This document shows, piece by piece, positions 14,026 through 30,489 of a DNA stretch of 64,000 nt (within the stretch, counting starts at the first letter, position 1; each line of letters starts with the position of its first letter). A program made the translations under genes and the position numbers. The DNA is from Vicinamibacterales bacterium (GTDB lineage Bacteria; Acidobacteriota; Vicinamibacteria; Vicinamibacterales; UBA8438). The notes beneath the pieces were generated by a model. It was not told where the DNA came from, made no database searches, and saw only the letters and a program-made list of their open reading frames with translations. Location: positions 124,066-188,065 of the forward strand of contig CATQHX010000003.1 of assembly GCA_958296065.1 (NCBI GenBank). The letters are read 5' to 3'.

Positions 14026-14034
14026 GGTGTCTCT

Positions 14035-14403
14035 TCAATCCCCACACGCTGGTGGGGGAGTGAAGTTAGCCCCTGGCCTGCGTGGGGTGGCATACAAGTG
14101 CTCAACCAAGGCAGCCGCACATGCCATCATCCTCTGCTCGGTCCCCTTGAGGACCTCCTGCGAGGCACCTCGGACGGCACCTTGCGCGGCTTCCGTGATT
14201 ATCCTCTGAGTCTCGCCATCTTGCAGGGTTTCCTCTAGTGCCCCACGGATGGCCTCCTGCAACTCGTCGGCAGTAGGTACTGCTACTATGATGGGCGCTT
14301 CAGGATTTCGTGTGGGTGCCAGCGTGGTCGGAGACGTCGGAACGCTCACCCATCTCCCTGGGACAGGCAGCTCCACCGTCGTGCATCCGTCTGGCTCGAG
14401 CAA
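14035..14403 (-). CDS. Hypothetical protein (122 aa)
   Basis: ORF directly upstream of the lipoprotein gene on the same strand. Helical ADELQEAIRGALEETLQDGETQRIITEAAQGAVRGASQEVLKG segment. Confidence 0.4.
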   Translation of the reverse strand: MLEPDGCTTVELPVPGRWVSVPTSPTTLAPTRNPEAPIIVAVPTADELQEAIRGALEETLQDGETQRIITEAAQGAVRGASQEVLKGTEQRMMACAAALVEHLYATPRRPGANFTPPPACGD

Positions 14404-14668
14404 TACCGACGGGCACTTCGCGCAGCGTCCTCATGGCGATCCGGCCAGTGTTTTCAGTGGCCGGACGAAGCCGTCCGGCCATAACCAGCTCTGAGCCGGC
14501 GCGAGCGGCGAGTCACCTGAAAGGCCGAAGCGATAGCGGAGGAGGCGCGAAGGCGACTTGACTCGACGGGAGCAGAGGCTACCCCAAAGCCTGACCTACC
14601 CACACGATTCCCGGAAGACCCCTATGATGGTGCCGCCGACACCAATGCCCACAAGCACCGTGATGGTC

Positions 14669-16463
14669 CTAGTTAGTGCCAGCCAGAAAACCCCCGTTTC
14701 GAGCGGAATTCTGAGACGAGTTCATTGATCGTGGACATGTTTTCGGGGGGCGAATCCGATCGCGAGGGAGGCAGTCCGGCGAGCTGCGGGCAGCGAAGAG
14801 CAGAAGATCAGCCCGGATGCCCTATTCCAAGGACACTAACACCGTGCCGTCTTGCGACGGCTCGCGACCCGGTGGTCTTGCAAGAACCGGCTGAGTCAGG
14901 CGACGCGTTGTCGTCGTTTGCGCTCCTGCTTCTGCAGAAGCAACCCGATGCGATGCAGGTTGGCCGCCAGCACCGACAAGGCAACCGTGCGCACAAACCC
15001 ATCCGCGCCATGGCTTCGAACACGGTCGAGTCCGCGATGCTCCAATCCATTGATGGCAGACTCGACCGCCGGGTGCGCACGCCGCGCCGCCACAAAAGAT
15101 TCTTCGGCTTCCCGCTCCTGGTTGGCCTTCGAAAGATATCCTTTGCCCGGCAACGCGTTGACATCAAGCAGCCCATCGAGCCGGACCCGGTTGGCAGGAC
15201 TGTGAAAGCCCCGGTCGAAACTGCACGCCCGCAACTCCGGATACAGTGCCTGCGCTTCCTGCACCATCGGCACCGCCACGTCCACGTCCTCGCCCTCCCA
15301 TAGAATCTTGTGGTGAAGGATGAATTGATACTGATCCTCGATAAGAGCGACAGGAACTCCGAGTTCAACCGGCGTGCCCGCCTTGCCTTTCGAAATCCAC
15401 CGCGTGTGCTCCTCGAAGATCGAAAAGACCTTCTCCTCGTGAGGAATCGTCTCGTCACGCAGAAGCCGCCGCTCCACCTGGTCAATCTGGCGCCGGCCGT
15501 GAGCGACAAAGCCGGCGATGGAGCGACAGGTGAATTCGGCCGCGCCCTGCTTCCGCAACGCGTCCAGCGTCGAATCTGCCCGCTCCACCAGCGCCCGGCA
15601 GCGCTCCACATACGCCTCCACCCGCTCCGGATGCCGCTTCGCCCGCCGTGTCGAGCGCACCTTGTTGAACAGCTTCCTGACCTCTCGGGTCAGATGGCGC
15701 CACTGACGCCAACCATGCATCCCGTATTTTTCAGCCGCCCGCCCAGTCTCCCGCACCAGACAACGCACGGCGTCCCACAACAGGTTGACGTCCGTCGGAT
15801 AATGCGCGTCGGTTTCGACCACGAACGAATCACACCGCCCGCGCAATGGCTCGCCAGGCTTTTTTTTAGCGACCTTGTGACCGCTCTCCACCACCAGGCG
15901 CCCCACCGCTGACAACAACTCCGGCGTCAACAACGACACGTTGTCCACCACGGTCTGGTACTCGTAGTGCGTCTTGTCGCCGAAGTCACTGTGGCCCAGG
16001 AACGCGCGTATCGTATCGTGATGGTTCGTCAATTCATGAAGACGGTCGAAGTCGCAGCCCAGCCCCTGCTTCAAGACTCCCAGCACCAGGACCTGCCACA
16101 GGTCCATTCCCGGCCGCCCAACCGTGCGGTCCGCCTCCGGCAGAATATGCTCGTCCAGCAGCGCATACAACTGCTCGCGCGACACCTCGTCACACCAGAT
16201 GTGTTGAAGCCCCTTCAACACCGCGGGAATATCGTCCCGCGACTTCGGGTTGATCCAGACCTTGTCGATGGCTACCTCACCGAGCTGGAGCTGCGACCTG
16301 TGAACTTCTCTCATGATGTCAATGCCGCGAAGATGTGCCCGAAGTGGACCGATTCTCGGAAAACTACTCCCAAGAATACGACATCCCGACGATCTCCGCC
16401 ACTTGAAATCCGACAGAGATCCCGTAGAATCAATCACTTACGGGGTTTTCTGGCGGACACTAG
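14669..16463 (-). mobile_element. Intact insertion sequence, IS4/IS5 superfamily (about 1.79 kb including flanking CTAG)
   Basis: Imperfect terminal IRs TAGTGCCAGCCAGAAAACCCC (14674..) and GGGGTTTTCTGGCGGACACTA (..16462). CTAG is present at both junctions. Single transposase ORF. Confidence 0.8.
14896..16314 (-). CDS. DDE transposase (IS4/IS5 superfamily; ISNCY/IS1182-like by recollection)
   Basis: ORF 14896..16437; the likely start is MREVHRSQ at 16314. ..SFVVETDAHYPTD.., ..CSFDRGFHS.., C-terminal RRAHPAVESAINGLEHRGLDRVRSHG..LSVLAANLHRIG (a Y-R-E-K-like motif). Confidence 0.85.
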   Translation of the reverse strand: MREVHRSQLQLGEVAIDKVWINPKSRDDIPAVLKGLQHIWCDEVSREQLYALLDEHILPEADRTVGRPGMDLWQVLVLGVLKQGLGCDFDRLHELTNHHDTIRAFLGHSDFGDKTHYEYQTVVDNVSLLTPELLSAVGRLVVESGHKVAKKKPGEPLRGRCDSFVVETDAHYPTDVNLLWDAVRCLVRETGRAAEKYGMHGWRQWRHLTREVRKLFNKVRSTRRAKRHPERVEAYVERCRALVERADSTLDALRKQGAAEFTCRSIAGFVAHGRRQIDQVERRLLRDETIPHEEKVFSIFEEHTRWISKGKAGTPVELGVPVALIEDQYQFILHHKILWEGEDVDVAVPMVQEAQALYPELRACSFDRGFHSPANRVRLDGLLDVNALPGKGYLSKANQEREAEESFVAARRAHPAVESAINGLEHRGLDRVRSHGADGFVRTVALSVLAANLHRIGLLLQKQERKRRQRVA

Positions 16464-16831
16464 TTATGACGACCTCTGTAAGGTGTCTCAGAGCCCTTCC
16501 TATGAAACTCCCGCTGTCCCCAACTGCCATCAGCCTCCTCCATTTCCTATCTGGGTCAAGCAGTCCACTTTACCCGGGGCTGCAACCACCCGTTAGCAGC
16601 CCGGCGCTGCTGGCAGGACAAGAAGACGGGCGAGAGGGCGCATCCTGTCCTGACCACCGAACCCGACCGCGCGAGGTGCACCGACCTCACACGAACAGAC
16701 CCATCGTCTTCATCTTCTCGGCGAGCACCTCCCGGCGAGTCGAATGCCTCAGGATCCGCGTTTCACCAATGGATTGTGTCACAAGCCTGTGATCGCTGGA
16801 TGTTAGAAGAGGGGTTTCAAGTGGTAAGTGC

Positions 16832-16925
16832 ATGACCAAATGGGTATTTTCCCTGGCCCAGCTCGGGCAGATGTCGGCGATGGTGGCGCACGAGGTCAAG
16901 AACCCGCTCGCGGGCATCTGGCTCG
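16832..16925 (+). pseudogene. Histidine-kinase HisKA H-box fragment (about 30 codons)
   Basis: LAQLGQMSAMVAHEVKNPLAGI. There is no sensor or ATPase domain on either side, and the frame then runs into the helicase gene. Confidence 0.45.
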
Positions 16926-16989
16926 CCACGGGCCGCCTCTCGCCGGCGAAACGGGCCCGGTGGAACCGGCGCGCGGAGGCCGCCGCCGC

Positions 16990-19496
16990 CGCCGACCCGC
17001 TGCTGTCGGCCCTCGACCCCCACCAGCGGCAGGCCGCCGCGTGCTTCGAAGACCGGGCGATGGTTACCGCCGGCGCGGGTCCGGCAAGACCCGGACGATG
17101 GTGGCGCGGGCGGGCTACGCCGCCCGCCGCCTCGGCACGCCGCCCGAGGCGATTGCCTTCATCACCTTCACGAACAAGGCGACCGAGGAGATCCGGCAAC
17201 GGACGCGCGAACGCCTGCCGGGCCTGCAGGTGGGCACGATCCACCAGCTCGCGCGCCGGGTGCTGAAGCTCGTCACGGCCGCACCGTCCAGCTCTCGGCG
17301 ATGGCGGAGGACGACGGCCTGAGGCGGCGACGGATCGCCGGCTGGATCCGCAAGGAGATCGCTTGCGACCCGGGGCTCGCCGCCGACGTCGAACTACGCC
17401 GCAACGCTCGCGCCGCTGCGGTGAAGGACGGTGAACCGGTGGAACGCCACCGCATCCCCCCCGACGGCCGCGAGGTGAAGTCGCACGGCGAGGTCGTGAT
17501 CGGAACCCTGCTGCACACCGCCGGCGTGCCCTTCGTCTACGAGGCGTCGTTCCCACTCCCGGCCGGGAAGGCCGGGGGCGCGCCGGGGGCCGACGCCCCA
17601 CCGGAGGATCTGAGGGGCTACCGCCCCGACTTCTATCTGCCGGACGACCCGGAGGCGCCGGTGACGGCGAAGGGCGGCGTCTGGCTCGAGTACTACGCGC
17701 ACGACCGGAACGGCCGGGCGCCGGCGGAGTTCGCCGGCTACGAGGAGGCGTGCGCCTGGAAGCGGCGTCTGCACGAGAACCTTTCGACGCGCTATGTCGA
17801 AACCTCCTTCGGGGACCTGCAGCGCGCCTGGGACGGCGACGGACCGGGCATGGCCGAGGTACTCGTCGAACGGCTGAGGGCGACGGGCGTCGAGATCGAC
17901 GATCCAGAACGGTGGACGGTCGAAGCGACCGACGACGTCGGCGACGGCCCGGACGCCGGGCCCGGCCCGCTGACGCTGGAGGTCGACGCCTGGATAGGCG
18001 CGGTGCGCCGACGGCCTGCCGGACGCCCGCCGCCCACGGGGCGCGCCGACGTCGAGGCGCTACGGCGCATCGGCCGCGCCGTGCGACGGCACTATGAGCA
18101 GGAACTCGCCGACACGAGCACCACCGACCACGACGGCACGATCCTCGAGGCCACCGACGCCGCGCGTCGGCGGCCGGACCTGCTGCCTTGGGGTCACGTG
18201 ATCGTCGACGAGTACCAGGACGTGAATCCGGCGCAGGCCGCCTTCGTCCACGCCCTGACGACGCCGAAGGGCCCGGGGCCCGGGGGCGAGGGCGCCACCC
18301 TGATCGGGGTCGGCGACGACTGGCAGGCGATCTTCGGGTTCCAGGGGGGCGACGCCTCCCTGATTCGGACGACCGCCGATCCGGCCGGGGTCGTGCGGAC
18401 GCTCTGCGAACCGATCACGCTCGTCAACGGGTACCGCTTCGGGCAGGGGCTCGCCGCCGCCTCGAGGGCCGTCGTGACGATGGACCCCAAGGCCCGCGAC
18501 CGGCGGCTCCGCGGCCTCGGGCCGGAACCGGTCGGCGGGGTGCCGCCGGTGTCGGTCACCGGGGCGAGACCCACGCCGGCCCTCGCGGCCGAGTTCGGGC
18601 CGACGGCGACGCCGACGAAGGCGGCCGTGCTGGCCGCCTTCGCATACTGGATACCGGAGCACGAGGCGGAAAGCGAGGAGGAGGTGACCGAGCCCGTTAC
18701 CGTGCTCGTGCTGGGCCGCCGGAACATCGATGTGTCGGATCCGCCGCCCGACGGCCGCGACGGGCCGGGGCTCGACCGCCGCCGTCTGAACGCGGCGGCG
18801 CGTCATTACGGCCGCGAGGTCGGGTTCCGGACGATACACGCCGCCAAGGGCACCGAGGCGGACTACGCGGTGCTGATCGACTCCGGGGTGCCGAGGTCGG
18901 CGACCACGCCCGCCCAGCTCGCGCTCGACCGTGCCATCGCGGCCGAAACCGGCGTCGGCCGCGACGACGAGTACCGGCTCTGGTACGTGGCGTTGACGCG
19001 CGCCCGCTACGCGGCGCTGATCGTGGTGTCCGACCCAGACGGCTGCGCGTCGCCGGTGACTCGGGCAATTATCGAAAGCGCGAGCCCGCGGCTGATGGCC
19101 GCCTCGCATCCGCTCGAAGTCTGGCTCGAGCGGGTGCGGGAGACGGTGCCGTGCCCGTGCTGCAGTCCCGGCGGCGGGGGCACGGGGCGCCTGCGCCTGC
19201 GGGGGATGAGCGGCGGGACCTGGCATTTCGCGGGGTGCACGAACTGGAAAGGCGGCGAGGGCTGCGACTACACGCAGCCCGCCTGCGGCGCCTGCGGCAC
19301 CGGCATGCTGGTGGAGGCTCCCGGCGGGCTCTTCGAGTGCTCCGACCCGTCGTGCCGGTCGAAGCAGCCGGGCTGCCGCTGCCGCCCCCCGAGACCTATG
19401 GTTGTACGCCGTCAGAAGCGCACACAGAAGCGTTTCTGGGGCTGCTGGCGGTACGGCAAGGCCGACGCCTGTGGCCGCACGCGGCCCATCGACTGA
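16990..19496 (+). pseudogene. UvrD/helicase-IV-like SF1 helicase with embedded PD-(D/E)xK-like module and C-terminal topoisomerase-type zinc ribbons; two frameshifts
   Basis: LDPHQRQAA..VTAGAG|SGKTRTMVA: the Walker A is broken by a 1-nt loss near 17080. ITFTNKATEEI..VGTIHQLA is followed by a second shift near 17287. ORF 17301..19496 carries SHGEVVIGTLLHTAGVPFVYE..YRPDFYLP..WLEYYAHD, VIVDEYQDVNPAQ, GDDWQAIFGFQGGD, IHAAKGTEADY, YVALTRAR, CPCC..AGCTNW and CGACG..FECSDPSC. Confidence 0.8.
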
Positions 19497-20052
19497 ACCC
19501 GGCCAGCCGGCGAAGAGGCCGTGGTCGCTGAGGCCGTCCGCACCGAACTCCCACGGATCGCCACATCGTGTGGCGCACCGACGGCGGCAGATAATGCTCT
19601 CGACGACTCTCGACGGCAGGGGCCTTCCGAACAGGCATCCCGCAATTTACCTGACAGCGCCCAGACAGCGCCCCCAAAACCTGCCTGAACCGAGAACGGC
19701 GCTACTACGCATATCCTCGCCCCGCTCATCCAGCCCCTGCGAAGAGTTCTATGCTGTCCCCCCCAACGTAAATCGGGGACTGCCCAGCACGCCCAGCACC
19801 TCGAACGTCCGCTGGGCTCCGTTCAGCCCCGAGCCTCTATGCGGCGGCGGAAACCGCCGGGCCGTCCTCCCGTCCTCGGTCAGAAGGCGGGGCATCAAAC
19901 GCGCGATGACAAACGCCCGAGAAGAATCTCGAAGAAATGACGCAAGCAGGCGGAGGCCGAACAGACTGACGAAACCGGGGGCCTTTTCAAGTTGCCATTT
20001 CCACGTGATCGGCGGGAAGCACGGCGGCCCGTGGCCTTCCAGGGTCAACTGC

Positions 20053-22221
20053 TCATGTACGAACGAGCACCTTGCGGAACGTCAGCGAAATGCGGCGTCC
20101 GCGCTTCACGCGGCCTGGCTCATGCCTTCGTTTTGGTATTTCATGCGTCCAGTCGTATCGTGCGTCGCCCGTCATTATCGCCGCACTGCGCCGTTCAAGC
20201 CGCTGGAGCACCTTGCGTCCCCGCTTCTTCTTCTCGCGAAACACTATTTCCCAGGATTCCAGCAGACTGATCATGGCGATGCCGTCGGCGAAACTCTGTT
20301 CACTGTCGACATGTCGGCTGATGCCCTGGTTACCGACGTATTCGTTGACGATGACCTGATCCGGAACGTCGGACAGCATGTCTTTCGAGACTAGACGTTG
20401 GGCCAGACGGGCGGCCCATGGCGGCAGCGGACCGAGGCGCATCGAAGAATCGATCTGCCGCGCCTTGTAATCGTACCGCCAGCCGTAATGCTGAACGCGA
20501 CGCTGCAGCTCCGAGCTCCAATCGGACTGATCGATAACCCCGACGACGTCGCCTTCTTCGCCTTCACTCAAGAAGTCGGTCACGTACCGGAGGCCGGGCA
20601 CATCGACGGTCTGGCCATGCCCCCTGGCGACTGGCGGGTCCGGCAGCCTTCCGGCCTCCACCGCCACGGCGCGTCGAAACGATTCCACGTCGAGAACTTC
20701 TTCGCAGACGGCTGCGGTCGGCACGCGCATCCGCACCGGTCCCCGAACATCCAGTCGCCGTTCGGAATCGCCCAGAACGGTTAGGACGCCGGAACCCGAT
20801 AACGGAATCCGTGCATCCGCCAGAACAATCTCCCGGTGCACACAGGACCACGCCATCCTCCCGGCGACCGCCTGCGCTTTTCGTTTCACCGCTGCGTCGT
20901 CGAAATCGGCCGTGAACCACTTCCCCCGCGCCTTCTCCGGCTTTCGAGCGAATTCCCGGCCGTCCCAGGACAGGACGAACTCGCCGCTGTCCCTGCGCCA
21001 CTCCGGCGCTTCCGCGGTCATGGACGGCCAGTCGATGTCCTGTCCGTCGCCAGCGCAAGCGCGCAGGGCGAGTATCGAAAGCAGCTCGCGCTGAAGAGCG
21101 CCGCCGCGGAACTGCGTGTCCAGCCCCCGGTACCCGTGGAGAAGCCCGCATAACGCAGCGGCCGACCATGCCACGGCGGGCGGCAGGTCCGGTCGGTCCC
21201 GGAACCAGGTCTTGAAGGCGCCCGGCTCCGAACGGGTCAGCACCAGTTGCAGTGCAACTCCCACCGGACCTGCCCGCCAGTCGTCGAAGTGAATCGTCGA
21301 CTCCGCACGCAGGACACGGTGCGTGTCATGAAGCCAAGTGGACATCGCTTCCGACGCGGCCGAGAGTCCTCCGAATCGTAGTGCTCCCGTCTTGATTCGC
21401 TCCGCGCGCTCGCGCGGTCCGATGGGACGTTCGGCCGAGCGATCCCGAAAAACGTCCACGGCCGCCCGCCAGAGGCACTCGTCGACGCCGGCCGGCGGCG
21501 GATCGTCCGACGGCCGCATCCAGGGCGGGCCTCTCCACCATCCGGCTTCGACTTCCGCTGCAGCTTCCGGCAGTCGTGCCCGATCGGACGCCAGGCTCGC
21601 CTTGAGCACGTCCAGCCACGGATCGATCCGTGGCACGGCCCATACGGCCATGCTCATGGCGCCGTGTATCGCGTCTTCGTCCCCCGGAACGACGAACGTG
21701 GACGACACCTCGGGCAGTACATCCGCAAACTCGACGGCTTCCTCTGAATCAGCACCAACCCGGAGTGCGGTTGCGGCAAGATCGACGTTCGAAACGCTCC
21801 GAGCCAACCCTTCGAGACGCTGGCGCTCCTCCTCGGTCGATATCGAAATCCCGCAAAAGGCGAAGGCAGGAAGCGCCCCCGGCCAGTACAACGCTTCATC
21901 CGTCGCCTCGATCTCTCTGAGGCAGCAAGACACCCATCTCTGGCCCCGACGGACCGAAACCGCAAGAGCCGGCAGCTTCGCGGCATCCAGCCTGATGCGT
22001 ACAACGATGGGATGACCACCCGGTGCGTCGGTTTGCTCCACGGCGTACGTGCCGACACCAATCAGTACGCCGGCGGTTGACTGCAGAGGACGCAGCCAGC
22101 CATCGGCCAGCGCCCCGAATAACCGCCGGTGGTCGGTGGCGAGTCCTAACCAGCGCGACCCGCCTTCCCACGCTCCGGCGTCTGGAAACGGCATGGCGAT
22201 CTGGCCGTCGGGAAGAGTCAT
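20053..22221 (-). CDS. 722-aa protein: about 540-aa uncharacterised N-terminal region fused to a C-terminal AlkB-like 2OG/Fe(II) dioxygenase domain
   Basis: The ATG at 22221 overlaps the upstream stop (TCATGA). C-terminal 180 aa: LRYVTDFL..RRVQHYGWRYDY..LGPLPPWA..PDQVIVNEYVGNQGISRHVDSE (HxD)..ARYDWTHEIP (distal His)..RRISLTFRKV (RxSxTxR). Confidence 0.85.
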   Translation of the reverse strand: MTLPDGQIAMPFPDAGAWEGGSRWLGLATDHRRLFGALADGWLRPLQSTAGVLIGVGTYAVEQTDAPGGHPIVVRIRLDAAKLPALAVSVRRGQRWVSCCLREIEATDEALYWPGALPAFAFCGISISTEEERQRLEGLARSVSNVDLAATALRVGADSEEAVEFADVLPEVSSTFVVPGDEDAIHGAMSMAVWAVPRIDPWLDVLKASLASDRARLPEAAAEVEAGWWRGPPWMRPSDDPPPAGVDECLWRAAVDVFRDRSAERPIGPRERAERIKTGALRFGGLSAASEAMSTWLHDTHRVLRAESTIHFDDWRAGPVGVALQLVLTRSEPGAFKTWFRDRPDLPPAVAWSAAALCGLLHGYRGLDTQFRGGALQRELLSILALRACAGDGQDIDWPSMTAEAPEWRRDSGEFVLSWDGREFARKPEKARGKWFTADFDDAAVKRKAQAVAGRMAWSCVHREIVLADARIPLSGSGVLTVLGDSERRLDVRGPVRMRVPTAAVCEEVLDVESFRRAVAVEAGRLPDPPVARGHGQTVDVPGLRYVTDFLSEGEEGDVVGVIDQSDWSSELQRRVQHYGWRYDYKARQIDSSMRLGPLPPWAARLAQRLVSKDMLSDVPDQVIVNEYVGNQGISRHVDSEQSFADGIAMISLLESWEIVFREKKKRGRKVLQRLERRSAAIMTGDARYDWTHEIPKRRHEPGRVKRGRRISLTFRKVLVRT

Positions 22222-23369
22222 GATCTCTCCAGGATGTCCGGACCCGGCAACTCGCTGGCGGCCGCGGGCACCAGATCGTGCGGACCGTACACGAGGAACA
22301 GGTTGTCTCGCGCTCGGGTGCACATCATGTACATGGCACGCCGCTCCGCGTCCGTCGTGCATGGGATGAAGTTGTCCAGCTCCAGGACGAATACGGTGTC
22401 GAATTCCTGCCCCTTTGCCGATTCCTTGTTCAATATCGTCACGCCGGGTGTGAGCAGGCTGATTTCGTCGTCGTTTCCCCGCGACGATTCGTACATATCG
22501 ACGCGGCTGTTGCTCGGTAGAATCCTGGACAATCTGGAGCACAAGTCACTACCGGTCGGATTGCGGTTAACGATGACGCCCACACTGCCGCCGCGTGTCT
22601 TGCACCAGTTCGACACGAAAGCCGCAGTGGATTCGAGATCCCGCGATAGAACAAGACGCGGAGGCTGACCGGACGGAGGCCGGAGCACGGTAGCAACGGG
22701 CAGGCGACCGTCGTGGAAATGCTCCGCCAATCTGGCGATCTCGGGCGTATTCCGATGATTCCGCGTCAGGATGATCGGGTCGGGCAGACCTGCGGCCTTC
22801 TTGATCTGCTCAAGCGTCGTACGTCGATCGCCGACCGCCTGATCATCATCCGCGAACACGGTCATCATCCTGGAGACATGCCGGGCAGCGTATTCGAAGA
22901 ACCCCGCCGGAAGGTCCTGTCCTTCGTCCACTACCAAGTGCTCCCTGTCAGGCGAAGCGTGACCATGTTCACGGAGCACCTCCGACATGGCATCCCAATC
23001 GTACGCGTACTGGTCATGAGGAACATTCGGCGGCGGAGAGCCCGTGCGGCGCCTGTAGTCTTTGCTGACGAAGCTGTGCATCGTGAACGCGTCCGGGTCA
23101 CCGCCACCGTCGACGAGAGATTCCTCTGCCCCGTCCTCGCGGATGAGGTTCAGCAGGCGTCGGAGCATGCGGTTGAAAGTGACGATCGCCACCGACGACA
23201 CGTCGCCGTCCTGCATTGCTGTCCTCGCCCGCTGCACGGCAAGGACCGTCTTGCCTGAACCCGGAGGTCCCACTACGAACAGCGACTGGTCGAGTGGGTA
23301 CTCCAGGACTTCAAGCTGTTCCGATTCCGCCGCAAGTTCGTCCCAGGTTGGAAGCCGCATTCCATTCAA
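22218..23369 (-). CDS. Compact SF1 (UvrD-like) helicase/ATPase, 383 aa
   Basis: Walker A VVGPPGSGKT, motif II LVVDEGQDL, LTRNHRNTPEI, NKESAKGQEFDTVFVL, MYMMCTRARDNLFLV. ATGA overlaps with both neighbouring genes. Confidence 0.9.
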   Translation of the reverse strand: MNGMRLPTWDELAAESEQLEVLEYPLDQSLFVVGPPGSGKTVLAVQRARTAMQDGDVSSVAIVTFNRMLRRLLNLIREDGAEESLVDGGGDPDAFTMHSFVSKDYRRRTGSPPPNVPHDQYAYDWDAMSEVLREHGHASPDREHLVVDEGQDLPAGFFEYAARHVSRMMTVFADDDQAVGDRRTTLEQIKKAAGLPDPIILTRNHRNTPEIARLAEHFHDGRLPVATVLRPPSGQPPRLVLSRDLESTAAFVSNWCKTRGGSVGVIVNRNPTGSDLCSRLSRILPSNSRVDMYESSRGNDDEISLLTPGVTILNKESAKGQEFDTVFVLELDNFIPCTTDAERRAMYMMCTRARDNLFLVYGPHDLVPAAASELPGPDILERS

Positions 23370-24325
23370 CCGAGTCTCAGAGTCTTTCGCGACGGGCGGT
23401 GAAACAACGCGTACCGGAGCCGGCGGTTCTTCACCACGGGCCCCCTTTCGACGTCGATGTCACCCACTTCGTCGACCTGCAGTTCGAAGCCGCGGTCGTG
23501 TAGCATCGAACAGAAGATCAGAAACTGGCGGTTCGCATTGTGTCTGGCCGAATTCGTGTACAGGACCGAGACGAGACCACGCCCCAACCTCGGAAGCAGT
23601 TCGTCCAGATCAGCAACGAGCGTTTCGACGTCCAACGTCGGGCTCGCAAAGAGATAGGACACGATGACGAGAACCGGACGCCAGCCGGGCCGATCGTCCC
23701 AGGGCACGGTCTGGATATTTGTCGCCCAACGGCAACGGATTCGCGGCAACTCATGAACCTGCTCCGCAGCGAGTGCAAGCCGCGCTCCAAGCCGGTGCAT
23801 CGCTTGTGACCGGTCCACTCCGACGTAGTCCAACCGCGCGTCTTCATCGAACCGGCCTGCGATGGCCAGCCCACCCGTGAACGGTCCGCAGCCGAGATCG
23901 ACGACGATGAGGTCTCGGGGCCGGTCGGCGCCGCCGAACAACCGGCCGAATGCCGTGACCAGTTCTTCGAGATGCCCGAGTTGGAAGAAGTGTGCGTAGA
24001 GAAGAACCCGATCGTCGGGAGACAGTTCCCCCCATGGTTCGTCGAAATCCGCCTGGCCCCAACCGGCGGCTCCGCGCTTCGCCTCGTCAGGACTGACTCC
24101 CAGGACGGTTCCCATCGTGGTTCGCGGATCGTTCATCACCCGATCCGTCACCTCCGAGCGTCGCAGTTTCCTCAGCCATTTGGGCAGCATCGGATTCGGT
24201 TCTCCACTGAACTCGCCCGCCCCAAGCCCGCCTTCATCGCACGGTCCCGACGCTGACGCGCGGAACCCGGCCTCCACCGCTGCCCGCATGTCTGAAGCGT
24301 CGAGACCGGAGTGTAGACAGAGCAT
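23366..24325 (-). CDS. Class-I SAM-dependent methyltransferase (not an obvious DNA N6A/N4C/C5 type)
   Basis: Motif I IVVDLGCGPFTGG and post-I YVGVDRS. I saw no (D/N/S)PP(Y/F/W) motif. GAGGA lies 7 nt before the ATG at 24325; the ORF track starts at 24535, and other possible starts are 24289 and 24190. Confidence 0.8.
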   Translation of the reverse strand: MLCLHSGLDASDMRAAVEAGFRASASGPCDEGGLGAGEFSGEPNPMLPKWLRKLRRSEVTDRVMNDPRTTMGTVLGVSPDEAKRGAAGWGQADFDEPWGELSPDDRVLLYAHFFQLGHLEELVTAFGRLFGGADRPRDLIVVDLGCGPFTGGLAIAGRFDEDARLDYVGVDRSQAMHRLGARLALAAEQVHELPRIRCRWATNIQTVPWDDRPGWRPVLVIVSYLFASPTLDVETLVADLDELLPRLGRGLVSVLYTNSARHNANRQFLIFCSMLHDRGFELQVDEVGDIDVERGPVVKNRRLRYALFHRPSRKTLRLG

Positions 24326-24635
24326 CTGAACATCCTCGCGCCGCGATGACCCAGCGTCAACTGCCGGTCCCGGGCACGGCGCGGGCCAGCACCATCCTAC
24401 CGGCTCCGCTGCCCAACGACCGCCACCACAGCCCGGCCATCCTCGCGGCGCCCCGCCCCCTCGACGCCTCCTCGACAATCCAAGCGACTGCCGGAGAACA
24501 AAGGTCAATCGACCCCGCCCCGTGCGCTCTGCCATCGGCCAGATGTAAGAGATCCTGGACCGACCTGGGAGCGGAAGTTCGCGCCGGTCACCACCGTCGG
24601 GGCCAATGCCGTCAAGCCCAAGCCGAGATCCGGGG

Positions 24636-24767
24636 TTAACCGTTCGGTCGTGCCGGTGCGTGGCGACGGTTGAGCGCCGACGGACCGGCGATCAGCGAGC
24701 GCAGCACCGCCATCTCCGCTGTCGTGAAGTCGCGGCCATAGTAACGGCAGTCGACCGGCGTGGTCAT
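24636..24767 (-). pseudogene. N-terminal fragment of a DUF4338-like protein (recollection-level call), cut off at a hairpin-repeat half-site
   Basis: MTTPVDCRYYGRDFTTAEMAVLRSLIAGPSALNRRH, then the frame runs into GACCGAACGGTTAAC (about 24640-24655) and stops. Confidence 0.35.
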
Positions 24768-25090
24768 GTCGGCGCCGCCAGTTCGTGCCGCCGCGCCGCG
24801 TCCATCGACCAAGGCGGCCACGCAGCGGTCTCGTCCAGCGGCCAGCCGCCGTTGTGAGCGCTCGCCGCCAAGCACGCTTCGAGCCAGCGGAGGAGATCGA
24901 TACTGAGCCCCTCGCGGGTTGACGAGCGCGCGCGGGACCTGCACGCGCCACGGAGTCTCGTCGGCGTGCCGTAGTCCCGCCGCGTGCTGGTGCGCGCGAT
25001 CGCCCCGGCGAGCGGCTCGAACAGCAGCACGAAGCGGGACACGCTATCGGCCGGCGCCCCCCGGTATAGCCGCACGGCGAAGAACGCACT

Positions 25091-25196
25091 GGTCCCGCAG
25101 GCCGAGCTGGTCAGTCGGCACGGATTCTCTGGACGCCGACGGCGCGTCTGGATGGGCCAGCCGCATGTCCATACCGGCTGGACCGAACGGCTACCA
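25091..25196. repeat. Reverse-oriented copy of repeat module 'b' (3341..3449)
   Basis: The reverse complement ..GGTAGCCGTTCGGTCCAGCCGGTATGGACATGCGGCTGGCCCATCCAGACGCGCCGTCGGC..CTGACCAGCTCGGCCTGCGGGACC aligns along its whole length with 3341..3449. Confidence 0.75.
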
Positions 25197-25755
25197 AGCC
25201 GCCCCGTGAGCGGATCCGGGATCCGGAAATCCCTAAATCCCGGTTCCGGGTGCCGGGTGGTCTCCGAATTCCGACCAATTCCGACCAATTCACCAATTCC
25301 GCAATTGTAACCGTTCGGTCTTCGTGCGCCGTGAAAGGCGCCATTCCTCAGCGGGTGCGAATCCCGCCCGGCAACTGTCGCTCCAGCCGGTAGCAGTCGG
25401 AGCGGACGAAGGAGGTAACGACATCGGCTGAAGCACTCCGACGAAAAGGCCACGTCAGGTGGTCAGCGACCACGCGGGCCGTAGCGCGCGCGAACGCCGA
25501 GCAGGCCCCGAAACCGGTGATGCGGAAGCCGACCCACCGTTTACCTGGGGAAGGCTGCCAGCGGTCGGGAAGCGAGCGACGCGAGCACCGACCGCCTCCG
25601 CCGGGGTAGTGGCGACAGCACGCGTGGAAGAGGGGGATGGACGCAACACGGGAAGCCCTGCCGGTGGCGTGGCACACGCCAACCGACAACCCGCGAGGGA
25701 CAGGTCGGGCCGGTCAGGGTGGCGGAGAGGCCAGTAGTACCGAGGAAGCCGGGTA

Positions 25756-27153
25756 ATGCCGGTGGAGGGAAGGGGCCTCAGTTCGAGAGCAGCGCATGAC
25801 GGGGGACGGGACGTGAGGACTGGCGAGCGCCTATCAGCCTCAGAGAGAGTTCAGCGACTCCAGACGGCGCTACATGCGAAAGCGAAGGAAGCTCCGAGCT
25901 TCCGATTCTACTCGCTGAGCGACAAGGTGTGGCGCGACGACGTGCTCGTGGTCGCCTGGCAGGCTGTTCGTCGCAACGGCGGCGCGGCCGGGGTGGACGG
26001 CGAGACGGTCGAGGACATCGAGTCGTTCGGGGTGGAGCGGTGGCTGGGAGCACTGGCGCGGGACCTGAAGGCGGGGACCTACCGGCCGCGAGCGGTGCGA
26101 CAGGTCCTCATCCCAAAGAAGAAACGCGGACAGTTCAGGCCGTTAGGTATTCCCTGTCTCCGGGACCGGGTGGCACAGACGGCGGCGATGCTGGTGTTGT
26201 CGCCGATCTTCGAGGCCGACCTGCAACCGGAGCAGTATGCGTACCGGCCGGGCCGAGACGCGAAGGACGCGGTCAGGCGCGTGCATCGGCTGCTGACGAC
26301 GGGCCATCGGGAGGTGGTAGACGCCGACCTGTCGGACTACTTCGGTCAAATCCCGCACTCGGACCTGCTCCGGTCCATCGCGCGGCGCGTGAGCGACGGG
26401 CGGCTGCTGGGCTGGGTCAAGTCGTGGCTGGAAATGGCGGTGGAGGAGGACGATGGGCGCGGCGGTCGCCGCCTGACGAACCGGGCGCGTCGCGAGCGGA
26501 AGGGCACCCCGCAGGGGTCACCGATTTCGCCGCTGTTCAGCAACGTCTACATGCGTCGCTTCATTCAGGGCTGGAAGGTGCTGGGCTACGCCCGGCGCTT
26601 CCAGGCGGAAATCGTCAACTATGCAGACGACCTCGCGGTGCTCGGCCGAGCGTCGGCGGCAGAGATGCTGACGGCGGTCGAAGGGCTGATGCGGCGTCTG
26701 AAGCTGCCGATGAACGCTGAGAAGACCCGCTGCTGCCGGGTGCCGGAGGAGCCGATGACGTTCCTTGGCTACCGGATTGGGCGCAACTACCGGCCGTCTA
26801 CGGGTGCCGCCTACATCGGCACGCGTCCCAGTCGGGAGAGCGTCCAGAGCATCTGCCGTCGAGTGAGCGAGCTGACGACGCGGCGTGACGAGCTCCTGCC
26901 GCCGGGAGAAGTGGTGGCGCGCCTGAACCGGTTGCTTACCGGCTGGGCGAACTACTTCACCCTCGGGCAGGTCAGCCCCGCGTATCGCGCCGTTGACCAG
27001 CACGCCGCGCGGCGGCTGCGCCAGTGGCTCTGCCGCAAGCACAAGGTGCGAGACGGGAAGTCTATGCGCTTCCCGTACGAGCGACTCTGGACGGAGTACG
27101 GGCTCACGCGCCTTGCCGCGCGAACGGCGCGCCATCCGTGGGCGAAGGCATGA
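25756..27153 (+). CDS. Group II intron reverse transcriptase/maturase (no HNH endonuclease domain)
   Basis: RFYSLSDKVWRDDVL..AAGVDGETVEDIE..YRPRAVRQVLIPKKKRGQFRPLGIPCLRDRVAQTA..YAYRPGRDAKDAV..DADLSDYFGQIPH..GTPQGSPISPLFSNVYM..IVNYADDLAVLG..FLGYRI..LLTGWANYF (X domain). The protein ends shortly afterwards. Confidence 0.93.
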   Translation: MPVEGRGLSSRAAHDGGRDVRTGERLSASERVQRLQTALHAKAKEAPSFRFYSLSDKVWRDDVLVVAWQAVRRNGGAAGVDGETVEDIESFGVERWLGALARDLKAGTYRPRAVRQVLIPKKKRGQFRPLGIPCLRDRVAQTAAMLVLSPIFEADLQPEQYAYRPGRDAKDAVRRVHRLLTTGHREVVDADLSDYFGQIPHSDLLRSIARRVSDGRLLGWVKSWLEMAVEEDDGRGGRRLTNRARRERKGTPQGSPISPLFSNVYMRRFIQGWKVLGYARRFQAEIVNYADDLAVLGRASAAEMLTAVEGLMRRLKLPMNAEKTRCCRVPEEPMTFLGYRIGRNYRPSTGAAYIGTRPSRESVQSICRRVSELTTRRDELLPPGEVVARLNRLLTGWANYFTLGQVSPAYRAVDQHAARRLRQWLCRKHKVRDGKSMRFPYERLWTEYGLTRLAARTARHPWAKA

Positions 27154-27163
27154 TCTCGTCCGA

Positions 27164-27196
<33 letters not shown>

Positions 27197-27314
27197 GATG
27201 AGCGGCGACTGGAAACGGAGCCACGGCGGGGAGTGAGGCACCGGCACTTGGCGAAAGCCGCCGGGAACAGCTACCCCCTTCCGCCTACCGCCACCGCGCC
27301 AGTCGTCGACTCTA

Positions 27315-27483
27315 CCCGGTATGGACGTGCGGCCGGGCCAACCGGACGCTGGCGTTGTCGACGGCCAGTACCGTTCGATGTCCCGTGTGCAGGGAGGGCG
27401 CCCGGACCGGATCGGCTCGCTGTTCGACGATGCTTGCCCGACTGCCGTAACGCCGGATACCGGCTTGACCGAACGCTTACCCG
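27315..27483. repeat. Copy of repeat module 'a' (3170..3338), same orientation
   Basis: CCCGGTATGGACGTGCGGCCGGGCCAACCGGACGCTGGCGTTGTCGACGGCCAG...GCTGTTCGACGATGCTTGCCCGACTGCCGTAACGCC is near-identical over about 165 bp. Confidence 0.8.
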
Positions 27484-27597
27484 CAATTCCGGAAATCCGG
27501 GCCTTAGCTCGGCGATCCAGGCATCGTGGTAACGTGAGTGGTAAGCGCCTTTCTTATATTTTCTTAACCTATTGTATAACAACATGTTCCATTGATT

Positions 27598-29370
27598 TCA
27601 GTTCTGTAGGGCGAACACGAACAGGTTGTTTCCCGTCCCCGGCTGCAGCTCGGTGGTCAGGCGCAGGTTGTCCCGCGTGCTGAGCGACGAGCCGGTGCTG
27701 ATGGCGACGTACTGGGTGCCGTCGACCGCGTAGGTGATCGGGAAGCCGGTCACCTGCGAGCCGAGGTTGACTTCCCAGAGCACCTCCCCCGTCTCGTGGT
27801 CGATGGCGCGGAAGCGCCCGTTGCTGTCGCCGCCGAAGATGAGTCCGCCGCCCGTGGCGACGAGCGACGTAGTGCCGGCGCGCTGCTCGTAGAGCCAGGT
27901 CGTCTCGCCGGTGGAGGCGTCGATGGCCCGGACCGTGCCTACCTGATCCGTGCCGGGTGCGTTCACGATGCGCTGCGAGAGGTTGTAGAGGCTGCCGTCG
28001 GCTATCGCCAGCATCCGGGCGCAGGCGTTGCGCAGCGGAAAGTACATCATGTTGGTGAGCGGGCTGTAGGCGCCCGATTCCCAGTCCTTGCCGCCGGTGA
28101 CGAACGACGGGCAGATCAGCATCTCGTTGTTCTCGCGCGTGAAGATGAGCTCCGGGTTCTCGGTGACGGCGCCGGTCGCCCCGTCGATGTGGGTGATGAC
28201 GTTCTGGGCCGTCGTCGGCGTCGCCCAGAGGAACTCGCCGGTGGCGCGGTCGAGAGTGTAGACCACGCCGGTCTTGCCCGGGATGCCGGTCACGACCCGG
28301 TACACCTCGCCCTGGCGCAGCCGCGGGTTGATCCAGGCGACATGCTCGGGGTCGGGCGTCATCGCGGTGTCGACCAGCAGCCGCTCGTAGGGGTGGTCCA
28401 GATCCCAATGGTCGTTCAGGTGCTGGTAGAACCACTCGATCTCGCCGGTGTCGGCGTTCAGGGCGAGGGTGGAGTTGTGGTAGAGGTGCGTGTTTTCGAC
28501 GCCGCCGATCATGAACTTCGGCGCCGGCGACGTGACCGAGGTGCCGATGTAGACCAGGTTCAGCTCGGGGTCGTAGCTCGGCACCATCCACGCGCCGACG
28601 TGCTTCCGTTCCTCGAACGGCACGCCGCCCCAGGTCTCGTCGCCGAACTCGCCCGGGCCGGGAATGAGGCGGCGGCGCCACAGCTCGTCGCCGGTCGCGG
28701 CGTCGTGCGCGACGATGACGCAGGCGTTCGGGCCGCCGCGCGGCGAGCAGCTCCGCCCGGAGATCACCTTGCCGTCGGCGACGATCGGGCCGGAGGTCTG
28801 GTTGGCCGGGTTGACGGTGTAGTCGAGCACCATCGTCTCCCACGCCACCTCGCCGGTCCGCGCGTCGATGGCGATCACCCAGTCGTCCGACGTGCTGTCG
28901 AACAGGTAGTTGCCATGGATGGCGATGTTGCGGTTGGTGTCGATCAGGCTGCCGATCATGTAGTCGGCCAAATCGTCGGGGCGCTCGCGGCGGTGCTCCC
29001 AGATGAGGTCGCCGCTCACCGCGTCGATGGCCTGGATGATGTCGCGCGGGTTCGGCATGTAGAGGACGCCGTCGTATACGAGCGGTGTTCCCTGCTGCAG
29101 TCCGGGGCCGAGCGGACGCGTCCAGACCAGCCGGAGGCCGGCGACGTTGTCGCGGTCGATCTGCTCGAGGGGGCTGAAGCCCCAGGTGTTCAGGGTGCGG
29201 CGCCACATCAGCCAGTCGTCCGGATCGGGATCCTGGAGCATGGCGTCGGTGACCGGAACGAACTCGCGGTCGCCCTGCTGCGCCTGCAGGGGCACCGCAA
29301 GGAGCGTAGCGGTGGCAACGATGAGAAGAAGGAACGACGCCGATGTGGAAACGTAGTGCTGAAGCTTCAT
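27598..29370 (-). CDS. PQQ-dependent dehydrogenase (quinoprotein alcohol/glucose dehydrogenase family)
   Basis: Signal peptide. ..DWLMWRRTLNTWGFSPLEQI..GLRLVWTRPLG..QGTPLVYDGVLYM..IQAIDAVSGDLIWEH.. These are repeated W-motif beta-propeller signatures. Confidence 0.88.
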   Translation of the reverse strand: MKLQHYVSTSASFLLLIVATATLLAVPLQAQQGDREFVPVTDAMLQDPDPDDWLMWRRTLNTWGFSPLEQIDRDNVAGLRLVWTRPLGPGLQQGTPLVYDGVLYMPNPRDIIQAIDAVSGDLIWEHRRERPDDLADYMIGSLIDTNRNIAIHGNYLFDSTSDDWVIAIDARTGEVAWETMVLDYTVNPANQTSGPIVADGKVISGRSCSPRGGPNACVIVAHDAATGDELWRRRLIPGPGEFGDETWGGVPFEERKHVGAWMVPSYDPELNLVYIGTSVTSPAPKFMIGGVENTHLYHNSTLALNADTGEIEWFYQHLNDHWDLDHPYERLLVDTAMTPDPEHVAWINPRLRQGEVYRVVTGIPGKTGVVYTLDRATGEFLWATPTTAQNVITHIDGATGAVTENPELIFTRENNEMLICPSFVTGGKDWESGAYSPLTNMMYFPLRNACARMLAIADGSLYNLSQRIVNAPGTDQVGTVRAIDASTGETTWLYEQRAGTTSLVATGGGLIFGGDSNGRFRAIDHETGEVLWEVNLGSQVTGFPITYAVDGTQYVAISTGSSLSTRDNLRLTTELQPGTGNNLFVFALQN

Positions 29371-29478
29371 GGGGGCAGCTTAGCCGGGACGCGCATCGCG
29401 TTCAATGGGTTGCTGCAGGGCGGGGCGCCACAGCGGGCCCCGGGGCTGCTGTACGCTTGGTGTGCGTCGGACCGGGAC

Positions 29479-29555
29479 GCGCCCGTAGCTCAGGTGGATA
29501 GAGCATCGGTCTTCTAAACCGAGGGTCGCTGGTTCGAGTCCAGCCGGGCGCGCCA
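29479..29555 (+). tRNA. tRNA-Arg (anticodon UCU), CCA encoded
   Basis: GCGCCCG-TA-GCTC-AGGTGGATA-GAGC-A-TCGGT-CTTCTAA-ACCGA-GGGTC-GCTGG-TTCGAGT-CCAGC-CGGGCGC-G-CCA folds as a full cloverleaf by hand. Confidence 0.93.
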
Positions 29556-29571
29556 ATTTTCGCCCGCGCAG

Positions 29572-30489
29572 CTACTGCTCCGCCATGTGGAGGTCGACGA
29601 AGAGACGGATGCTGACGCCGGGGCGGGCGCCTGCGGAGATCTGCGCGCCGCGCGGATCCGGCGGCTCGTACAGCACGCGGTACCGCTTCGACACTTCCAC
29701 GTAGTGGGCGTTCAGGCGTGCTGCGTACCTGCGCATCCATTCCGGCATGCCGGTTACGGCGGAGAAGGTCTCGTACACGCCGCCCGTGTTGTCGGCGATG
29801 TTGCGGGCGTACCCCCGCATGACGCTGCTGTTGACGCTGTTGCCCCGGCTGCCGCCCGACAGTTGCAGAATGTTCACCGTGACGCCGTCGGCGATGAGCG
29901 CCTCGACGAATTCGGCATATTGGCGATCGCTGTAGTTCCTGCTGTTCTCGGGGCCGTCCGTCAGGAGGAGCACCATCACCGGCAGAGTCTCATCGCCCTC
30001 GTAGTGGCGCTCCCAGATCTCCTTGATGCCGTCGAGCAGGAAGGTGCCTGCGCCCGAATCCAGGAAGATCTCCTCGGCCGACGCTTTCAGCTCCCCGCGG
30101 TCCGTCGTGAAGTCGACCCGCCGCTGGACGTTCCGGGCGATCGTGAACACGGCAACCTCGTGTTCCGGCGCGAGCGTGTCGAGAAACGCTTCCATCGCGT
30201 CCTGCAGCGGGTTGAGCGCGTTGAATTGGGACATCCGGTCGCCGTTGTCGATGAGCAGCGCCACCTTCATCGGCCCGACCGGCTCGACCGAGACGATCCT
30301 CGTCCGGGTGTCGTCCTCCAGCACGATGAAGTCCGACGCGGTCAGGCCGGGAACCACCCGTCCATCGGCATCCAGCGCCTCGATGTACAGCCGCCCGAGC
30401 GCCTGCGCCCCGGCCGCCGCGGGCACAGACAGCGCCAGCGCGACCACCGCCAACAGGATCAACCCACCGCCGGTCGCGGAACGCTGCAT
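29572..30489 (-). CDS. Secreted von Willebrand factor A (VWA) domain protein
   Basis: Signal peptide ..ALSVPAAAGAQ. VALLIDNGDRMS (MIDAS-like DxxxS), ..VAVFTIARNVQRRVDFT.., ..VMVLLLTDGPENS. Confidence 0.75.
   Translation of the reverse strand: MQRSATGGGLILLAVVALALSVPAAAGAQALGRLYIEALDADGRVVPGLTASDFIVLEDDTRTRIVSVEPVGPMKVALLIDNGDRMSQFNALNPLQDAMEAFLDTLAPEHEVAVFTIARNVQRRVDFTTDRGELKASAEEIFLDSGAGTFLLDGIKEIWERHYEGDETLPVMVLLLTDGPENSRNYSDRQYAEFVEALIADGVTVNILQLSGGSRGNSVNSSVMRGYARNIADNTGGVYETFSAVTGMPEWMRRYAARLNAHYVEVSKRYRVLYEPPDPRGAQISAGARPGVSIRLFVDLHMAEQ

Follow-up and report, generated by a model that had tools for sequence, protein, structure and literature searches.

The locus considered here raises the question of whether three adjoining minus-strand genes, encoding a methyltransferase (gene A), a compact helicase (gene B) and a long protein that ends in an AlkB-like oxygenase domain (gene C), form one functional unit and, if so, what this unit might do. 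The genes lie in a 64,000-nucleotide stretch of a Vicinamibacterales genome (Acidobacteriota; contig CATQHX010000003.1, positions 124,066 to 188,065), hereafter called the window, whose numbering is used throughout except where another locus is named. An original prediction, made from the letters of the window alone, had proposed that the trio is a translationally coupled and undescribed nucleic acid modification or defence system. Reading the window again, we confirmed all three genes as intact open reading frames (ORFs) that follow each other head to tail on the minus strand (20053-24190), with the following layout:

20016..24408, minus strand: conserved cassette in its full extent, ~4.4 kb, delimited by blastn against related loci
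24191..24408, minus strand: leader and probable promoter region; DNA homology to the related locus L036 reaches 24408
23366..24190, minus strand: gene A, predicted class-I S-adenosylmethionine (SAM) methyltransferase, 274 amino acids (aa), start taken from the homologue alignment
22218..23369, minus strand: gene B, predicted superfamily 1 (SF1) helicase/translocase core, UvrD/HelD-like, 380-383 aa
20053-22221, minus strand: gene C as a whole, 722 aa, from the ORF and its PF13532 match
20617..22221, minus strand: N-terminal orphan module of gene C, residues 1 to ~535, with beta-rich, helical and mixed subdomains
20053..20616, minus strand: C-terminal, predicted ALKBH8-like Fe(II)/2-oxoglutarate oxygenase domain of gene C, residues 536-722 plus the stop codon

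To see how widely this arrangement is shared, we scanned one genome per GTDB species for relatives of gene C, which were recovered from 387 species genomes in at least eight phyla; full-length homologues of gene C, with 50-87% identity, number in the hundreds. The locus analysis covered the best 80 loci. Within these, the closest relatives of gene C (81-87% identity) come from Vicinamibacterales, and the other carriers comprise other Acidobacteriota, many Gammaproteobacteria, Burkholderiales, Lysobacter, Pseudomonas, Alphaproteobacteria, Gemmatimonadota, Chloroflexota, Nitrospira (Nitrospirota), Gemmataceae (Planctomycetota), Myxococcota and Entotheonella. Of the 80 loci, 72 have genes A, B and C inside a span of 6 kb, nearly always in the order A-B-C; in four loci the order is B-C-A. 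Since the order recurs across phyla, the association is far beyond chance. Starting from gene A led to the same picture, with B and C behind A in all 19 metagenomic loci that have enough downstream DNA, and in two proteins (P0069 and P0109, 1108 and 1114 aa) B and C are fused. When positions 14001-32000 of the window were compared with the 80 related loci by blastn, homology was confined to 20016-24408; the closest relatives at the DNA level, L036 (89%, from 20061 to 24408) and L048 (84%), have unrelated flanks. No fourth gene is conserved, the commonest cluster of flanking ORFs being present in 6 of the 72 loci. Because the genes co-localise, B and C overlap in an ATGA and occur as fusions, and homology stops at the ends of the cassette, A-B-C is one self-contained, horizontally mobile operon, which bears out the proposal that the trio is a single unit. 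The catalytic residues, whose conservation had been named as a check on that proposal, are conserved in all three proteins. We predict that the products of A, B and C are active enzymes, and we expect them to act jointly.

Cultured carriers are Pseudomonas sp. MF4836, P. rossensis P2663, Lysobacter enzymogenes 521, Variovorax sp. E3, Paraburkholderia sp. SIMBA_030 and Rugamonas aquatica FT29W. The names of several metagenome-assembled carrier genomes (Entotheonella; bins APA, RHO, COS, IRC and SB06xx), which we take to denote marine-sponge symbionts, suggest a further habitat, a hint with which the most frequent neighbour family in our Pfam census, ankyrin-repeat proteins, would also fit.

The junctions within the operon agree with the original prediction in part. 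B and C do overlap in an ATGA (22221-22218), but the A/B junction reads TTGA, and its overlap amounts to 4 nt only if gene B starts at TTG 23369; the homologues of gene B align from ATG 23360, 5 nt past the stop of gene A, leaving TTG 23369 and ATG 23360 as candidate starts. Similarly, the GAGGA proposed as a ribosome-binding site does precede an ATG at 24325, but this ATG is probably not where gene A begins. Because most of the listed homologues are 274-279 aa long and begin at an M(xxx)LPxWL motif, the likely start is ATG 24190 (274 aa) rather than 24325 (319 aa), and ATG 24190 is preceded by a GGAGA of its own, 10 nt upstream. The leader (24191..24408) thus holds 24325, with its GAGGA, as an alternative in-frame ATG; no sigma-70 consensus was found in it, and scans for promoters and terminators yielded no more matches than shuffled sequence did. 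A 14-nt direct repeat, CCAG(G/C)GTCAACTGC, flanks the cassette (20039-20052 and 24351-24364) and was considered as a signature of mobility, but its downstream copy is absent from the closest relative, L036, and the repeat is probably due to chance. No inverted repeats of note were found flanking the cassette.

Gene A belongs to a divergent family of class-I SAM methyltransferases. In the alignment of its homologues, motif I (VVDLGCGPFTGG) and motif II (YVGVD) vary little or not at all, the class-I signature being present as DLGCGPFTGG (motif I, D98-G106) together with YxGxD and an invariant D126, and a conserved N-terminal extension of ~90 aa with a GQADFD motif stands ahead of the Rossmann fold. 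As had been noted from the single sequence, the motifs of DNA amino- and C5-methyltransferases are missing: the alignment holds no (D/N/S)PP(Y/F/W), the motif IV region reading VSYL(F/L)ASPT, no conserved cysteine outside motif I, and neither the PC nor the ENV motif of the C5 enzymes. Given that it lacks both an exocyclic-amine motif and a catalytic cysteine, gene A is, by its motifs, no DNA amino-methyltransferase and no C5 or 5-methyluridine (m5U)-type enzyme, and for the same reason methylation of a ring nitrogen or an oxygen would be its most likely chemistry. No Pfam family scored above threshold (Methyltransf_25 reached 14 bits against a cutoff of 27). The profile search against the PDB gave marginal matches to Tmt1 (2.5e-3) and METTL17 (0.039) and none to Trm9 or the ALKBH8 methyltransferase even at E<=10; Pfam Rsm22 matched 3 of 25 members of the gene A family at 9e-5. 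Among database models, PADLOC C3a159 (PDLC01079; E 7e-9 for gene A) alone recognises the family; it is a three-member "methyl transferase" cluster that Shah et al. (2018, PMC6546367) list among candidate accessory genes of type III CRISPR.

For gene B, the assignment to the SF1 helicases stands firm, since motifs I, Ia, II, III, IV, V and VI (including GPPGSGKT, NRMLRR, DEGQD, FADxDQ, NHRNT, KGQEFD and MCxRARD) are conserved in 19 homologues and the Pfam families AAA_19, UvrD_C, UvrD_C_2 and Viral_helicase1 match. Its best relative of solved structure in a profile search is Bacillus subtilis HelD (5.7e-25, covering core domains only, HelD residues 527-756), followed by UvrD (3e-10) and, more weakly, GajB, SLFN5/11 and Aquarius. 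Full-length equivalence to HelD, HelR, UvrD, Rep or PcrA was not found, the NCBIfam scores (19-40 bits) lying far below the cutoffs (419-1144). From this comparison, gene B is a minimal SF1 core that lacks the 1B/2B domains and the N-terminal accessory domains of HelD, and its UvrD/HelD likeness suggests a DNA substrate.

The C-terminal domain of gene C matches PF13532 (2OG-FeII_Oxy_2) over residues 581-716 with 71 bits (E 2e-19), well above the cutoff of 31.2, and contains the three signature elements reported for it, RHVD, WTHEI and RRISLTFR. Across 22 homologues D639, H693, R710 and R716 do not vary, and the conservation of H637 is 90% or more; the iron triad H637-x-D639...H693 and the Rx5R residues for 2-oxoglutarate align to the HiD, WTH and RtSfTFR of ALKBH8. 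The AlphaFold model of the domain is a double-stranded beta-helix with a predicted local distance difference test (pLDDT) score of 80-95, for which Foldseek ranked ALKBH8, ALKBH6 and NMAD-1 first, with target-normalised template modelling scores of 0.6-0.7 to ALKBH6, NMAD-1, ALKBH5 and ABH2. By sequence, the AlkB domain of human ALKBH8 is closest (E 1.8e-21), followed by NMAD-1/ALKBH4 (1.8e-12), Ofd2 (3e-11) and ABH2 (6e-6), and Escherichia coli AlkB gives no match at E<0.01. Neither membership in the E. coli AlkB group nor an ada regulon context was found, gene C having only genes A and B as operon partners. A stand-alone AlkB on plasmid pTB4 of Roseobacter denitrificans shares 45% identity with the domain; the ALKBH8-like protein of this organism (RD) is among those investigated by Zdzalik et al. 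(2014, PMC4051686). In terms of sequence, then, the oxygenase belongs to an ALKBH8-like clade and not to the repair clade of E. coli AlkB. Of the "eraser" first proposed, the AlkB fold is retained and the E. coli-type assignment is not, and methyl erasure by gene C is plausible without being the default expectation for such a domain. The architecture of eukaryotic ALKBH8, with an RNA recognition motif (RRM), a zinc finger and a fused Trm9-like methyltransferase, was not found either, PF13532 being the sole Pfam match in gene C.

About 75% of gene C, which the first reading had passed over, consists of the N-terminal module. It has no Pfam match (12 members scanned) and no PDB match in a profile search; AlphaFold models residues 1-535 with a pLDDT of 54, Foldseek returned no match with E<0.5 for them, and the matches listed for the full gene C model in the PDB and BFVD are mostly due to the AlkB domain. 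When 1.84 billion representatives were searched with a profile, 272 relatives came up, almost every one of which combines the N-module with an AlkB domain. Its first ~400 residues stand alone in P0398, where an AlkB gene of its own follows 3 kb downstream (L096). The same ~400 residues also occur in two large polyvalent proteins: P0380 (L095 6487-10128; 1213 aa) joins DUF4326, NADAR and the N-module, and P0389 (1963 aa) joins the N-module to YAcAr. P0380 adjoins a YAcAr protein and a DUF7146-Toprim gene, the latter suggesting, from its domain content, a conjugative or phage element.

Are all three genes needed for the association between methyltransferase and oxygenase? A second architecture, found in cyanobacteria, suggests otherwise. 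On pAQ5 and pAQ6 of Picosynechococcus PCC 7002, a homologue of gene A (29% identical, E 2e-21; full-length match to C3a159, E 7e-125) lies directly upstream of a stand-alone ALKBH8-like oxygenase of ~205 aa, the cyanobacterial oxygenases being 37-41% identical to the domain in gene C. Ahead of this pair, both plasmids encode a 686-aa protein in which an AAA_33/KTI12-like P-loop is fused to WYL-WCX. On pAQ5, in Synechocystis PCC 7339 and on a metagenomic contig, the module extends further upstream by a retron-type reverse transcriptase (RT), whose best PADLOC matches are RT-Protease_XI, RT-TIR_XII and RT-Toprim_I-C (~1e-138), and a 290-aa protein; on pAQ6 it follows Cmr6-like and Csx1 (CARF-HEPN) genes. 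Calothrix and locus L123 have the two-gene pair only. The five-gene form, in the order retron-type RT, 290-aa protein, AAA_33/KTI12-like kinase-WYL-WCX, C3a159 methyltransferase and ALKBH8-like oxygenase, is found at three places:

L087 867-6549 (pAQ5): five-gene cyanobacterial module
L092 1784-7526: five-gene cyanobacterial module
L093 380-6363: five-gene cyanobacterial module

Because cyanobacteria and L123 keep the pair without helicase and N-module, the methyltransferase and the ALKBH8-like oxygenase are, by these comparisons, the invariant core of both architectures, with helicase plus N-module, or kinase-WYL with or without retron RT, as alternative accessories by lineage. The five-gene module may itself be an undescribed type of retron or defence system. 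We also considered an RNA break-repair cassette resembling Pnkp-Hen1, an idea prompted by the AAA_33 kinase, and rejected it, as no ligase occurs in any neighbourhood.

A separate observation concerns the Vicinamibacterales locus L003 (1065-13050), where a gene C homologue (71% identical) occurs without A and B. Its neighbours encode a 1032-aa protein, a different P-loop helicase-like protein of 463 aa and proteins of 236 and 592 aa, and a 960-aa protein follows downstream; these large genes may be an alternative set of partners for gene C.

We then asked whether the cassette belongs to a known system or keeps the company of defence genes, as the original prediction had supposed. It was correct that no named system has this composition: none was matched in PADLOC 2023, NCBIfam 2026, Pfam or the literature searched. 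Matches of the trio in PADLOC-DB v2 were weak or generic (GajB 6e-11 for the helicase, mad2 1.4e-3, mad8 1.4e-6, CARF_2OG 1e-3). In that database neither GajA nor another core defence gene was found with the trio, and no system among Gabija, MADS, DRT, BREX, DISARM and Druantia had every component strongly matched. NCBIfam holds no model for gene A or gene C, and neither an AlkB-containing defence system nor a description of the trio was found in the literature searched, which did not cover PMC5062991. The proposed link to defence holds for some loci only. We ran Pfam and PADLOC on the ORFs that directly flank the compact trio on either side (68 loci, 129 ORFs) and found no recurrent partner and no enrichment of defence genes, with AbiE, GajB-like and ADP-ribosylglycohydrolase genes as sporadic neighbours. 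Individual contexts vary from housekeeping genes and regions rich in insertion sequence (IS) elements to an island with BREX and type IIG restriction-modification (RM) genes and an island with toxin-antitoxin and integrase genes, so that linkage to defence islands is only occasional. In one Vicinamibacterales defence island, a 560-aa protein of the ADP-ribosylglycohydrolase family is encoded directly upstream of the trio (L125 5269-6951, equal to L005 4170-5852); the island also encodes an MmeI-like type IIG RM enzyme, UvrD, HATPase_c_4 proteins and BrxL.

What, then, could the unit do? We favour, tentatively and at a probability of roughly 0.38, a role in genetic conflict resembling that of DarT-DarG, in which gene A would be a methyl writer and B and C together a helicase-assisted oxidative eraser. 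A would methylate a ring nitrogen or a similar position of a nucleobase in single-stranded DNA (ssDNA) or in an RNA such as tRNA; B would unwind or clear the substrate and pass it to C, whose orphan N-module would bind substrate and/or partner proteins; and the oxygenase would oxidise the methylated base, whereby the mark would be removed. The potentially harmful writer and its eraser would serve either defence of the abortive-infection type or the maintenance of the cassette itself. Ring-nitrogen methyl groups are classic substrates of the AlkB family, removed by hydroxylation and loss of formaldehyde, and if A methylates a ring nitrogen, its product would be a substrate of the classic AlkB type; we infer that A and C act at the same nucleobase position. 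A narrower formulation, a new kind of conflict system whose immunity or addiction would be built on reversible base methylation and in which A puts methyl groups on the Watson-Crick face of single-stranded nucleic acid and the oxygenase detoxifies the host's own molecules, seems to us rather unlikely as it stands. In that case the helicase-coupled ALKBH8-type oxygenase would need O2, Fe(II) and 2-oxoglutarate, and it would detoxify continuously.

The assignment of these roles draws on the company that AlkB domains keep. Among the structure matches are giant-virus proteins in which an AlkB domain is joined to a helicase or to NADAR, including a SNF2-AlkB fusion in Marseillevirus, and RNA-virus replicases that combine methyltransferase, AlkB and helicase. 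Human ALKBH3 obtains ssDNA through the helicase ASCC3, and NADAR is an eraser of ADP-ribosylated bases. Because AlkB domains thus recur with helicases and NADAR, and because the N-module is itself found fused to NADAR, B and C would be the eraser and A the cognate writer. The patterns of gene loss point in the same direction: intact gene C persists without A (or B) in L063, L071 and L126 and stands beside remnants of A or B in L008, L056 and L078, IS elements are inserted in gene A in L007/L082 and L101, and among about 20 loci there was no intact gene A without C. The numbers are too small for significance, as equal loss rates predict ~1.4 orphan copies of A per 20 loci. The pairing of methyltransferase and oxygenase in the second architecture also speaks for the writer/eraser reading, as do the contexts of some copies in defence or toxin-antitoxin islands and of the cyanobacterial pair beside retron-type RT, Cmr6, Csx1 and WYL genes.

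Several further observations weigh against this interpretation. Almost no members of the family occur on phages or plasmids (no match in 50,697 phage records; AlkB-domain matches but no trio on plasmids; one full trio in IMG/VR), and the nearest neighbours of the trio are mostly metabolic or ankyrin-repeat genes rather than defence genes. The cues to the substrate are mixed: the helicase looks DNA-type, ALKBH8 is a tRNA enzyme, and Rsm22/METTL17, to which gene A weakly matches, are ribosome-associated and methyltransferase-like. In addition, ALKBH8 acts after its own methyltransferase rather than opposing it. The bacterial ALKBH8 proteins tested repair methyl lesions poorly or negligibly in vitro, and a knockout of the ALKBH8-like gene of Agrobacterium tumefaciens has no phenotype with methyl methanesulfonate (MMS) or chloroacetaldehyde (CAA) (PMC4051686).

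The strongest competitor, doubtful but to be taken seriously, is a two-step hypermodification along the lines of ALKBH8 or NSUN3/ALKBH1. Here A would methylate a base or side chain, most likely in tRNA or another RNA, and C would hydroxylate the product to a stable modified nucleoside, with the helicase remodelling the substrate, and the modification could alter decoding or confer resistance to anticodon-directed toxins. The oxygenase is indeed far nearer to ALKBH8 than to any demethylase, ALKBH8 carries the methyltransferase that prepares its substrate as part of the same natural protein, and the weak matches of gene A to Rsm22/METTL17 and to the carboxyl methyltransferase Tmt1 point the same way; among the homologues, however, methyltransferase and oxygenase were never seen fused, and gene A is not Trm9-like. 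The P-loop protein of the cyanobacterial variant is of the KTI12/AAA_33 type, and KTI12 is a tRNA-binding cofactor in the same eukaryotic U34 pathway as ALKBH8. Yet the mcm5U (5-methoxycarbonylmethyluridine) of that pathway is not known from bacteria, the UvrD/HelD-like helicase suggests DNA, intact C persists without A in several genomes, and a patchy, horizontally transferred distribution would be unusual for an enzyme that tunes translation. The poor repair activity of the bacterial ALKBH8s also fits a two-step modification, and the authors who reported it favour an mcm5U-like RNA substrate; in the A. tumefaciens knockout, on the other hand, the modification of tRNA-Gly(UCC) is unchanged (PMC4051686).

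The persistence of C without A would be easier to understand if B and C were dedicated to repair, removing exogenous alkyl or etheno adducts, or base adducts made by toxins, from ssDNA or RNA in the manner of ALKBH3-ASCC3, with the methyltransferase separately protecting or marking, as Hen1 does in Pnkp-Hen1 RNA repair. The viral AlkB-helicase and AlkB-NADAR fusions, the N-module joined to NADAR in a polyvalent protein of a mobile element, the stand-alone N-module near a stand-alone AlkB in L096 and the activity of the Rhizobium etli ALKBH8-like protein on etheno adducts (PMC4051686) all fit. We nevertheless regard this as improbable: it leaves the strict linkage of methyltransferase and oxygenase in two unrelated architectures unexplained, repair partners such as a ligase or a glycosylase are not conserved, and there is no Ada-type regulon context. 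Least credible of all, to the point that we give it little weight, is a scheme similar to restriction-modification, with A marking the host's DNA and the helicase-oxygenase protein attacking or inactivating unmarked invader DNA. BREX, DISARM and Druantia typically pair a methyltransferase with a helicase, one of the loci is part of a BREX/RM island, and PADLOC returned mad2, mad8 and GajB; but these matches are weak and generic, the neighbourhoods are not enriched in defence genes, the domain searches of A, B and C brought up neither a nuclease nor any other effector, and gene A has neither DNA-methyltransferase motifs nor a target-recognition domain.

The surroundings of the cassette in the window hold several further features. 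Adjoining it downstream, a UvrD-like helicase is split over two overlapping plus-strand ORFs (16828-19496), of which 16828-17322 encodes the Walker A and N-terminal part of UvrD and 17301-19496 the remainder with a Cys-rich, zinc-ribbon-like tail. Judged by its reading frames, this looks like a frameshifted pseudogene, and it is not conserved beside the trio elsewhere. About 1 kb upstream of gene A lies a complete group II intron (25349-27315, plus strand). The intron and the structural RNA genes of the window are as follows:

25349-25489, plus strand: group II intron, Rfam group-II-D1D4-4
25756-27153, plus strand: group II intron, RT/maturase ORF
27162-27315, plus strand: group II intron, domain V/VI model
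34164-34520 (minus strand), 29479-29552 (plus strand), 46240-46426 (minus strand) and 53983-54056 (minus strand): a transfer-messenger RNA (tmRNA), two tRNA genes and a 6S RNA

tRNA and tmRNA genes are frequent integration sites for islands, and the stretch from 16 to 34 kb of the window may be a genomic island.

How does the cassette relate to systems already described? Its component superfamilies are known, and there are precedents for its pairwise logic in ALKBH8, ALKBH3-ASCC3 and DarTG. The bacterial ALKBH8s (group 2A AlkB proteins such as RD on pTB4) and eukaryotic ALKBH8 are closest to the oxygenase by sequence and predicted structure, share its Fe and 2-oxoglutarate ligands and, in ALKBH8, have a methyltransferase as obligate partner. 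In the cassette, however, this methyltransferase is a separate gene and not Trm9-like, RRM and zinc finger are absent, and an orphan N-module of ~535 aa and an SF1 helicase are added, whereas the characterised bacterial ALKBH8s are stand-alone proteins of ~200 aa, unlike gene C. DarT-DarG and DarT-NADAR offer the analogy of a base-modifying writer beside an eraser of base adducts in a patchy mobile cassette, and the N-module of gene C is elsewhere fused to NADAR; the chemistry here would be methylation and oxidative demethylation rather than ADP-ribosylation, in three genes that include a helicase. Human ALKBH3-ASCC3 likewise joins an AlkB-family oxygenase to a helicase, which in the cassette is coupled translationally and sometimes fused, but ASCC3 is a large SF2 Ski2-like enzyme where gene B is minimal, SF1 and UvrD/HelD-like, ALKBH3 is from another AlkB clade, and the complex has no methyltransferase. 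The three domain types also come together in the replicases of plant RNA viruses of the Flexiviridae/Closteroviridae type (methyltransferase-AlkB-helicase-RNA-dependent RNA polymerase), in line with the Viral_helicase1 match of gene B and the structural match of the AlkB domain of gene C. There the methyltransferase is an alphavirus-like capping enzyme and a polymerase is included, whereas here the genes are separate and bacterial, and the resemblance is probably convergent. C3a159, finally, matches gene A and its cyanobacterial homologue but is a cluster without described function or partner, and the trio is not CRISPR-linked.

In the resources searched there is neither a name nor a curated model for the whole unit, and the same is true of the methyltransferase and of three quarters of gene C. 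The cassette gives the bacterial ALKBH8-like oxygenases, which by the 2014 work lack a convincing part in DNA repair, a fixed genomic partner, and because this methyltransferase presumably makes or shares the substrate of the oxygenase, the question of that substrate becomes directly testable. If the writer/eraser interpretation is true, the cassette would be the first counterpart of DarTG-type systems to work by methylation; and should the narrower formulation, with its detoxification of Watson-Crick-face methyl groups, hold as well, it would reveal a physiological role for the bacterial ALKBH8-like oxygenases.

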